From Escherichia phage Pandora71, in sequence record PV841870.1: a DNA stretch of 44,696 bases; one strand, given 5' to 3'. The translations under genes were made by a program, and so were the position numbers. The notes below the pieces were generated by a model that had not been told where the DNA came from, did not search any database, and worked only from the letters and a program-made list of their open reading frames with translations. Below, in pieces: positions 8,432-9,952 of this stretch. Every line of letters begins with the position of its first letter. Positions within the stretch are counted from its first letter, which is position 1.

Positions 8432-9518
8432 TCAATATATGGCGGATCGAATGATTCGCCGTCACATCTTCACACAGCGCCTGAGCAATTACCAGGCGCG
8501 AAGGGTGCTGTCCATGTGGGAGAAGTTCCGGCCCACGTTACTGGGTAAGCTGACCGAGTTACTTGATGGTAAAAAGTCCATGAACAACAAGGCACTTACC
8601 ACTCTGTTAACGCAACTCGACAAGACCGTCAAAACAGAACTGCGCGCCGAGTTTAAAGTGCTGGCGGAGAGCCTTCATGAGTTCGCCGACACCGAGGCTG
8701 ATTATCTCGCTGACACACTAACGGCAGCGATCCAGCCCGCTGTCGCCGTACCCGCTGTTGAAGTAGTTGGCGTTGTTACCGGCGCGCAGATTGCAGCGAC
8801 GGCTATGAAAAACCCGTTCCAGGGTAATACGATGATGCAATGGCCTGACTCACTTTCCGAGTGGACCAGGACGCAGATCGGCAACCAGGTGCGCGCTGGA
8901 TTCATCCAGGGCAAGCCGACTATGGAAATTATTGCGGACGTGAGGCGCGCGCTAGGAGGTCGTAGTGCGCAAGCAATCTCAAGCGTTGTCAAGTCCGCGG
9001 TCAACCACTATGCGGCGACCGCCCGCGAATTAATGGTAAAAGCTAATGACGATATTCTCGAAGGTCGCCAATGGTTGGCTACATTGGACACGCATACTTC
9101 TCCCATGTGCCAGCTACGCGATCGCCTGTTTTATCCGGTTGATGTTACTCCCGACACCAAAGGAAAGCGCGGCGGGAAAGTGGTGGCGGGGTCACAATAT
9201 GGCGCTGGTCCGGGCAAGCTGCATTATTGCTGCCGTTCGACGGAGACGTGGAAAGTCAAAGGTATGGAAGATTGGCCCAGTGGTAAGCGTCCGGCACTGA
9301 AGGCTGACGCGGGCCGATTGCTGAGTGAGCAGGTCGACGCGCAGACTGATTTCTTCTCATGGGTGCAGCGCCAGCCGCGCCATATCCTGGAGGAATTATA
9401 TGGAGTGCAACGCGCCGACCAGATTATGCGCGGAGTGAAAGTGCCGAAGATGTTTACCGATTCTGGCGAACTGATGACTATTGCACAGCTTAAAAACCGG
9501 GGGTTATGGCGTGATTAA
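8415..9518 (+). CDS. head morphogenesis protein (Mu F / SPP1 gp7-like)
   Basis: 367 aa; conserved-looking region TLDTHTSPMC typical of this family; position after portal. Confidence 0.75.
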   Translation: MAKTINQYMADRMIRRHIFTQRLSNYQARRVLSMWEKFRPTLLGKLTELLDGKKSMNNKALTTLLTQLDKTVKTELRAEFKVLAESLHEFADTEADYLADTLTAAIQPAVAVPAVEVVGVVTGAQIAATAMKNPFQGNTMMQWPDSLSEWTRTQIGNQVRAGFIQGKPTMEIIADVRRALGGRSAQAISSVVKSAVNHYAATARELMVKANDDILEGRQWLATLDTHTSPMCQLRDRLFYPVDVTPDTKGKRGGKVVAGSQYGAGPGKLHYCCRSTETWKVKGMEDWPSGKRPALKADAGRLLSEQVDAQTDFFSWVQRQPRHILEELYGVQRADQIMRGVKVPKMFTDSGELMTIAQLKNRGLWRD

Positions 9519-9840
9519 ATATGCAGCGATCGTACTGGTTATCGGTCTGGTGGTAGGATTCTGGCTAGGTGACTCCTATCGCGCTGGCGTAGTGGCGGAG
9601 GCGGCGCAAGAAGCGCAAGCAGAAGCCCAACGGCAGCAAACTAAAGTTATTGAGCGCTCCGTGCAGGCCGAACAAGCCCGCGACGTAGAATACCGGACTA
9701 TCACGAAAGAGGTTGTTAAATATGTTACGCGCCCTAACCGCCCTGATTGTAGTTTTGATGCTGAGCGCGTGCGGATCAAGCAACGTGCCGTTGATGCCGC
9801 TAACGGAGTCGGCACTGCGACCGCCGTGCAAGTTCGATAG
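9481..9840 (+). CDS. i-spanin (Rz-like) candidate; start may be GTG 9511
   Basis: N-terminal TM helix then Ala/Gln/Glu-rich coiled coil; overlapping lipoprotein ORF in another frame. Confidence 0.55.
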   Translation: MHSLKTGGYGVIKYAAIVLVIGLVVGFWLGDSYRAGVVAEAAQEAQAEAQRQQTKVIERSVQAEQARDVEYRTITKEVVKYVTRPNRPDCSFDAERVRIKQRAVDAANGVGTATAVQVR

Positions 9841-9952
9841 CCCGTCCGCAGACCCCGACGAAGATTTGATGATTGACGTGAAAAATATGGAATGCGGGGC
9901 GGAGCTAAGGGCGCAGGTGCTGGAGTTGCAGCAAATAATTAAGGGGCCGTAA
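9722..9952 (+). CDS. o-spanin (Rz1-like) lipoprotein embedded in Rz frame
   Basis: signal peptide with lipobox LSAC, Pro-rich mature part; ATG 9722 with AAAGAGG RBS; overlaps 3' end of 9481-9840 in a different frame. Confidence 0.6.
   Translation: MLRALTALIVVLMLSACGSSNVPLMPLTESALRPPCKFDSPSADPDEDLMIDVKNMECGAELRAQVLELQQIIKGP

Follow-up and report, generated by a model that had tools for sequence, protein, structure and literature searches.

A pair of overlapping genes in Escherichia phage Pandora71 (sequence record PV841870.1; the window is the whole stretch of 44,696 nucleotides [nt] that was analyzed) very probably encodes both halves of a "Jersey"-family two-component spanin; the genes have the overlapped arrangement, and the phage is a Dhillonvirus. 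The gene for the inner-membrane subunit (i-spanin) lies at 9511–9840 and the gene for the outer-membrane lipoprotein subunit (o-spanin) at 9722–9952, both on the plus strand. An earlier note on this DNA had proposed an i-spanin/o-spanin pair at this location, and that core proposal was upheld by matches to PHROG spanin families, by a curated counterpart pair in phages HK578 and EK99P-1, and by the lack of a rival spanin beside the endolysin gene. The two open reading frames (ORFs), their targeting signals, their family membership, selection on both frames and their conserved position are direct observations; from the lambda and T4 paradigms, by analogy, we infer lipidation, sorting, complex formation, membrane fusion and a lysis phenotype. 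The source phage is an HK578-like virulent E. coli siphophage, with ~92–93% nucleotide identity to the nearest of ~157 matching phage records. This identity to the nearest Dhillonvirus was measured over 25 kb and over the 2.4 kb surrounding the spanin pair; it may lie below the 95% species threshold, in which case the phage could represent an undescribed Dhillonvirus species.

Spanin-specific hidden Markov models, which the earlier note had named as a check on its proposal, were matched by both proteins. The i-spanin matched phrog_2536, an "Rz-like spanin" family, over residues 1–108 of 109 (E = 3.2e-36), and the o-spanin matched two families with the same label, phrog_5672 (E = 1.8e-25) and phrog_1267 (E = 2.1e-11). 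Apart from one weak match to a "signal peptide motif" family, the PHROG matches of the pair were to spanin families only, and no head families were hit. Relatives were detected by tblastn in ~650 phage records, mostly of Salmonella and Escherichia siphophages and chiefly from Dhillonvirus, Jerseyvirus and Kagunavirus. Both subunits are similar to the Jersey family, with identities to Jerseyvirus members of ~37% for the i-spanin and 41–47% for the o-spanin.

HK578, JL1, SSL-2009a, EK99P-1, EP23 and SO-1 were assigned to the Jersey i-spanin and o-spanin families, with overlapped genes, in a published survey (Kongari et al., 2018; BMC Bioinformatics 19:326; PMC6139136). The HK578-like members form a shorter, second Jersey subfamily with two helices and a linker and with two constant o-spanin cysteines (PMC6139136). 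For both HK578 and EK99P-1, the supplement to that survey lists a 109-amino-acid i-spanin that starts MIKYAAIG and has the Shine-Dalgarno (SD) string "aaaaccGGGGGttatggc", together with a 76-amino-acid o-spanin in the +1 frame with a 119-nt overlap, class "ovl" (PMC6139136). The start, length and SD of the i-spanin in the window are the same as those of HK578_005 and EK99P-1_0005 in the supplement. One Dhillonvirus locus (L008) holds copies with ~94% (i-spanin) and ~97% (o-spanin) identity to the pair, and its i-spanin sequence is that given in the supplement for HK578. Judged by their sequences, these are the same genes as the HK578/EK99P-1 pair, which makes the pair an ordinary one, already known and published in 2018.

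The i-spanin frame is open from TTG 9481 and ends at 9840, and its credible start is GTG 9511. This codon is preceded, with a 7-nt spacer, by the SD sequence GGGGG (9499–9503), the same SD string as in HK578 and EK99P-1 (Kongari et al., 2018), and it is kept as the start in 22 of 22 Dhillonvirus relatives. TTG 9481, used by record UDS3lw, was rejected as the start; an SD is present only at GTG 9511, which Kongari et al. also chose in their curation. With this start, the last 8 nt of the preceding head morphogenesis gene, stop codon included, are shared with the i-spanin gene, within GTGATTAA. From its ORF, its phrog_2536 match and its hydropathy, the 109-residue product is predicted to be a type II inner-membrane protein. 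M-I-K is followed by 17 hydrophobic residues (YAAIVLVIGLVVGFWLG; residues 4–20, codons at 9520–9570) that form the transmembrane domain (TMD), with a maximum Kyte-Doolittle 19-residue mean of 2.27. The remaining ~87 amino acids are rich in Ala, Gln, Glu and Arg, and the sole cysteine, C80, sits in a proline-containing linker.

A single-sequence AlphaFold2 model of low confidence (predicted local distance difference test score 65.6), which was used for secondary structure only, placed helices at residues 3–72 and 84–97, with the TMD inside the long first helix. For the HK578 i-spanin, 41 of the 80 periplasmic residues are listed as helical (Kongari et al., 2018, supplement; PMC6139136). The protein is small, with a single N-terminal TMD and a largely helical C-terminal domain predicted to be periplasmic, in keeping with the published criteria for an i-spanin (Summer 2007; Kongari 2018). 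The earlier note had described the ORF (9481/9511–9840) as encoding a transmembrane segment plus a coiled coil. The ORF and the TMD are borne out, but the coiled coil is not: a crude heptad (a/d) test over residues 24–72 was not significant, with 3848 of 5000 shuffles equally good, and in the Kongari supplement the i-spanins of HK578 and EK99P-1 have no coiled-coil entry and that of SSL-2009a has a single region (residues 29–56; PMC6139136).

The o-spanin gene (9722–9952) starts with ATG, is in the +1 frame relative to the i-spanin, and encodes a 76-amino-acid precursor from which a 60-amino-acid mature lipoprotein is predicted. Its SD, AAGAGG at 9707–9712 with a 9-nt spacer, is located inside the sequence for the i-spanin motif KEVVKYVTRP, which is kept in all Dhillonvirus copies and in Jerseyvirus Shelanagig. 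The precursor begins with the signal peptide MLRALTALIVVLM, followed by the lipobox LSAC (9761–9772); by pattern match, this is a textbook lipoprotein signal, and Cys17 is the predicted acylated residue on the basis of a regular expression and signal-peptide features. A lipobox of the form [LM][ST]AC is kept in the 22 Dhillonvirus relatives. Sorting of lipoproteins is governed by the established +2 rule. Because Gly follows Cys17, leaving the +2 position without an inner-membrane retention signal, the outer membrane would be the expected destination. The mature part includes 7 prolines among its 60 residues, concentrated in the N-terminal half, and two further cysteines, C36 and C58. These two and the i-spanin C80, all in parts predicted to be periplasmic, are invariant in the 22 Dhillonvirus copies and present in Shelanagig. 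The i-spanin TMD and the lipobox are likewise kept in these 22 copies and in Shelanagig. The earlier suggestion that 9722–9952 encodes a lipoprotein in another frame is well supported by the LSAC lipobox, the Gly at +2, the conserved C36 and C58, the proline content and the persistence of the lipobox pattern.

The two genes share 119 nt (9722–9840), the same overlap length as is listed for HK578 and EK99P-1, and the o-spanin ORF continues for 112 nt (9841–9952) beyond the i-spanin stop. The o-spanin gene, which is on the same strand and in the +1 frame, starts inside the i-spanin gene and stops past its end, which is the layout of the overlapped class; in the embedded class, the o-spanin gene is wholly within the i-spanin gene. 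The description of the pair as embedded in the earlier note was revised to overlapped, in line with the "ovl" class given to HK578 and EK99P-1 by Kongari et al. A reading in which only one frame is translated, with the second ORF a chance open frame, could draw on several GenBank records that annotate one ORF only, on the tendency of gene callers to disfavor overlaps, and on other long, spurious minus-strand ORFs that cross the region (e.g., 9565–9984). Contrary to this, each of 22 distinct Dhillonvirus sequences carries both ORFs intact; start codons, frame and total length (442 nt) are unchanged and there are no indels, although the amino acid identity of these copies to the window extends down to ~75%.

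Mean pairwise nucleotide diversity by codon position was also at odds with a single translated frame. In the segment that encodes only the i-spanin (before 9722), diversity was 0.076, 0.038 and 0.212 at i-frame positions 1, 2 and 3, and in the segment that encodes only the o-spanin (after 9840), it was 0.098, 0.043 and 0.228 at o-frame positions 1, 2 and 3. Within the overlap, diversity was 0.12 at the third position of each frame and 0.039 where position 2 of one frame coincides with position 1 of the other. The variable third positions are those of the i-frame at first, of both frames in the overlap and of the o-frame thereafter, with the change exactly where the coding switches, which indicates that both frames are translated and under purifying selection. 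Each ORF has its own SD, and each has independent protein-level homologues in Jerseyvirus (~37–46% identity). These data confirmed that both ORFs are real, beyond chance; taken together, conservation in 22 sequences and the codon-position diversity exclude a spurious second ORF for practical purposes, and we give translation of a single frame next to no credence.

One Dhillonvirus subclade (loci L017–L022; e.g., L020 1501–1809) has an earlier i-spanin stop codon inside the overlap, which gives an i-spanin of 102 instead of 109 amino acids, and its o-spanin still has 76 amino acids. The 102-amino-acid i-spanin fits the published view that the extreme C terminus of i-spanins is dispensable.

Upstream of the pair is a head morphogenesis gene (SPP1 gp7/Mu F-like; 8415–9518, plus strand), identified by its match to phrog_241 "head morphogenesis" (E = 2.5e-116) and by annotation in relatives. 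The module runs from the terminase small and large subunits through portal, the phrog_241 gene and the spanins to a hairpin, then an inverted Nmad5 gene, and on to scaffold (phrog_206) and major capsid. The earlier note had put the pair at the end of the head operon; it is located inside the head module, with the head morphogenesis gene before it and the scaffold and major capsid genes (10766–12779) after it, beyond the oppositely oriented Nmad5 gene. The same slot is used in Dhillonvirus, in Jerseyvirus Shelanagig and in Kagunavirus K1H. The hairpin (9941–9961) is terminator-like in both directions, with an 8-bp stem that includes six G-C pairs and with the o-spanin stop codon in its loop. 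Its centroid fold is −15.4 kcal/mol on the plus strand and −15.9 kcal/mol on the minus strand; it is kept in relatives and annotated as a terminator in PTXU06 and WFI.

The Nmad5 gene (9966–10775, minus strand; PF18757, nucleotide modification associated domain 5, E = 1e-53) converges on the o-spanin gene and shares the hairpin with it. In the relatives TheodorHerzl and "rolling," a gene labeled DNA polymerase III beta subunit is found here in addition to Nmad5 or in its place, so this is a slot for variable cargo.

The location in the head module and the coupling of the i-spanin start to the head morphogenesis gene would also suit a reading in which both proteins are real but do another job, such as superinfection exclusion, receptor masking (like Cor or Llp) or head assembly, with the outer membrane disrupted in some other way. 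A head role is difficult to reconcile with the PHROG matches, which are confined to spanin families apart from the weak "signal peptide motif" hit and include no head families. The combination of a type II membrane protein with a +1-frame outer-membrane lipoprotein that starts inside its gene, and with periplasmic cysteines in both proteins, is a signature specific to spanins. A phage need not have a spanin, since ~13% of phages of Gram-negative hosts have no recognizable one in the survey of Kongari et al. (PMC6139136), and this leaves some room for a non-lysis role. If the pair did act elsewhere, however, no substitute is apparent: a search for a second spanin (u-spanin or other pair) near the endolysin gene and across the whole window found none. 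The window does encode another putative lipoprotein, beside the tail genes, and this one has a weak Cor match. Overall, we regard a function outside lysis as very improbable.

The other lipoprotein candidate emerged when ORFs in all six frames of the entire 44.7-kb window were scanned for plausible lipoprotein signals; only the o-spanin and one other ORF (26806..26585, minus strand) were returned. The latter encodes 73 amino acids with the lipobox LSGC (Cys15), belongs to phrog_4281 and weakly matches Cor, a superinfection exclusion family. It adjoins a gene for a 324-amino-acid membrane protein (25617–26591, minus strand; phrog_1265), shortly after the gene for the central tail fibre J (22143–25589). 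From their sequences, these two genes are likely to be a receptor-blocking or superinfection exclusion module.

Several points weigh against the assignment of the 9511–9952 pair as a Jersey spanin. A Pfam-A scan (E ≤ 0.1) gave no family for the o-spanin and only a sub-threshold match to DUF7904 for the i-spanin (13.4 bits against a cut-off of 30), and an NCBIfam scan gave no matches for either protein. In function and layout, the earlier label "Rz/Rz1-type" is apt, but a place in the Rz and Rz1 sequence families finds no support, because neither protein reached the gathering threshold of the corresponding Pfam models. The coiled-coil character of the i-spanin is weak and not established, and we endorse this region no further than as a predicted helix; the AlphaFold2 model is of low confidence, and the lipobox of the o-spanin was assigned by pattern only. 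In the literature searched, no experimental test (complementation, knockout or lipidation assay) of Jersey or Dhillonvirus spanins was found, a point that also favors the non-lysis alternative. The function assigned to Jersey spanins draws on their features and on parallels with lambda Rz/Rz1 and T4 PseT.3/PseT.2.

The other lysis genes are at a distance from the pair. Two consecutive holin genes with overlapping stop and start codons, holin 1 (2062–2352; phrog_2359 "holin," E = 9.6e-32) and holin 2, a second small membrane protein (2349–2594; phrog_2508 "holin," E = 2.8e-27), are followed by an endolysin gene of the lysozyme family (2581–3072; PF00959, E = 1.8e-20; phrog_7 "endolysin," E = 1e-36), all three on the plus strand. 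The endolysin, which lacks a signal-anchor or any hydrophobic segment at its N terminus, is probably a soluble, holin-dependent enzyme. After it comes a 55-amino-acid ORF (3089–3256) of phrog_11068, a family of unknown function, with neither a lipobox nor a TMD. Between the endolysin stop and the start of the i-spanin gene lie 6.4 kb. The separation from the holin and endolysin genes (2062–3072) that the earlier note had pointed out is real, at ~6.4 kb, and is conserved across Dhillonvirus: the lysis genes were split in all eight relatives with enough flanking sequence, with the holin ~5.5–8 kb upstream of the i-spanin. The split arrangement is common to Dhillonvirus, Jerseyvirus and Kagunavirus and is already documented. 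A search for literature comment on the unlinked position of Dhillonvirus and Jerseyvirus spanins found annotations only, and the Shelanagig genome announcement is silent on lysis genes.

Every gene between 1028 and 9952 has the same orientation. Two hairpins that resemble terminators, at 3263–3284 (z −4.2) and 4854–4874 (z −2.8), lie between the two loci and are kept in relatives. Because these hairpins intervene, it is plausible that the lysis functions belong to separate transcription units. No promoter could be assigned; a sigma-70 promoter scan of positions 1–13000 gave 9 sites, compared with 8.3 expected from shuffled sequence. The two hairpins flank a plus-strand gene (3495–4637), between the lysis cassette and the terminase genes, for a 380-amino-acid protein with an N-terminal helix-turn-helix-like region and a metallophosphoesterase (SbcD-like) domain (phrog_704 "DNA repair exonuclease," E = 1e-159).

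A further hairpin (2027–2056, plus strand), a strong one, stands directly ahead of holin 1. Its 12-bp stem (−21.5 kcal/mol, z −7.4) precedes a T6 run, its end lies 5 nt from the holin ATG (2062), and eight relatives share it with 95–100% conservation. It may act as a terminator of the upstream unit, may block the start of holin translation, or may do both, and is a possible control point for lysis timing.

If the pair acts as a spanin, the i-spanin would insert in the inner membrane by its N-terminal TMD, with the mostly helical ~87-amino-acid domain in the periplasm. The o-spanin would be exported, lipidated on Cys17 and relieved of its signal peptide, and the Lol pathway would deliver it to the inner leaflet of the outer membrane. 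The periplasmic domains of the two subunits would bind, and disulfide-linked homodimers through the conserved cysteines are probable. The interaction is probably made by the alpha-2 regions and not by the variable extreme C terminus of the i-spanin, with which the 102-amino-acid subclade is consistent. Complexes that cross the periplasm would be threaded through the peptidoglycan mesh and held inactive, which would allow them to build up harmlessly during late expression. Once the two holins release the endolysin and the peptidoglycan is degraded, the freed complexes would bring about fusion of the two membranes, which would clear the final obstacle to phage release.

Expression would be from the packaging and head transcript, with the terminator after the o-spanin gene. 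The overlap of the i-spanin start with the 3′ end of the head morphogenesis gene suggests that the spanins ride on this transcript. Since spanins are expected to be inert until the wall is degraded, their genes would not have to be closely linked to those for the holins and endolysin, and any late transcript would suffice; riding on the packaging and head mRNA would therefore be tolerated.

Among known systems, the closest are the Dhillonvirus orthologues, with amino acid identities to the window proteins of ~92–99% for the commoner type and ~75–84% for the divergent subclade. They share the 109- and 76-amino-acid lengths, the 119-nt overlap, the +1 frame, the GTG start with GGGGG SD, the lipobox, the cysteines and the place after the head morphogenesis gene, and they differ by point substitutions only, apart from the earlier stop codon of the subclade with the 102-amino-acid i-spanin. 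Jerseyvirus and Kagunavirus members (Jersey, SETP3, Shelanagig and K1H), which make up the first Jersey subfamily, likewise have phrog_2536 and phrog_5672 proteins encoded by overlapped genes in the +1 frame, in the head-module slot between an SPP1 gp7-like gene and the scaffold and capsid genes. Their identity to the window proteins is ~37% (i-spanin) and 42–46% (o-spanin), and their i-spanins are longer (~128 amino acids), with polyglutamine stretches and two predicted beta strands in the linker. Jersey itself has a longer overlap of 155 nt, and the three-member FSL SP-031 group of the Jersey family has the separated arrangement. In Jerseyvirus SeF1, four PHROG families are split in the same way: the spanins are Gp_009 and Gp_010, and the holins, Gp_063 and Gp_064, are of the same two PHROG families as in the window and sit at a distant locus beside the endolysin gene, whereas the SeF1 endolysin is of a different family (phrog_33083).

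Lambda Rz/Rz1 also consists of a type II inner-membrane subunit and an outer-membrane lipoprotein subunit in the +1 frame, with periplasmic cysteines. Rz1 is embedded, wholly inside Rz, whereas the o-spanin gene in the window extends 112 nt beyond the i-spanin gene. At 109 amino acids, the i-spanin is shorter than that of lambda (153 amino acids), neither window protein has a Pfam match above threshold, and the o-spanin, with proline at 7 of 60 residues, is less proline-rich than its lambda counterpart and has a predicted C-terminal helix. The lambda spanin genes come directly after S and R.

In P2, lysB/lysC, the prototype of the overlapped spanin architecture, adjoin the holin and endolysin genes; as in the window, the o-spanin starts inside the i-spanin gene in another frame and runs past its stop, and the proteins are of the same functional class. 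The P2 o-spanin has a family of its own in the tables of Kongari et al., apart from the Jersey family. The T4 spanin genes, PseT.3/PseT.2, are, like the pair in the window, unlinked from the holin (t) and endolysin (e) genes and are the classical precedent for spanins outside the lysis cassette (figure legend, PMC6139136). They differ from the window pair in their separated architecture, their protein family and their genomic context, which is outside the head module.

Public records label this position in various ways. GenBank has "i-spanin" (bas14_0005) and "o-spanin" in TheodorHerzl, "Rz-like spanin" twice in EK99P-1, "putative o-spanin" in Opt212 and "Rz-like spanin" for the o-spanin in McMelon. 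An i-spanin and an o-spanin are annotated at the same position in Jerseyvirus Shelanagig, and a "putative spanin" is annotated in Kagunavirus K1H. The records of relatives (L001–L003 and L020–L023) are inconsistent; the i-spanin is often "hypothetical" or absent, and the o-spanin is absent or started late. A late o-spanin start loses the lipobox, as in EK99P-1 gp06 (4907–5065). The practical value of the present analysis is in annotation, because many Dhillonvirus records mislabel or omit the genes; its discovery value is small. The correct starts for annotation are GTG 9511 for the i-spanin and ATG 9722 for the o-spanin.

An improbable but more far-reaching idea is that the conserved head-module slot sets the dosage or timing of the spanins relative to capsid production, with the 2027–2056 hairpin gating the holin separately. 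If true, the regulatory logic of lysis in these phages would be distinct from that of a lambda-type single cassette. As in T4, spanin genes need not adjoin the holin and endolysin genes, and searches for lysis genes that are limited to the neighborhood of the endolysin would wrongly score these phages as spanin-less.

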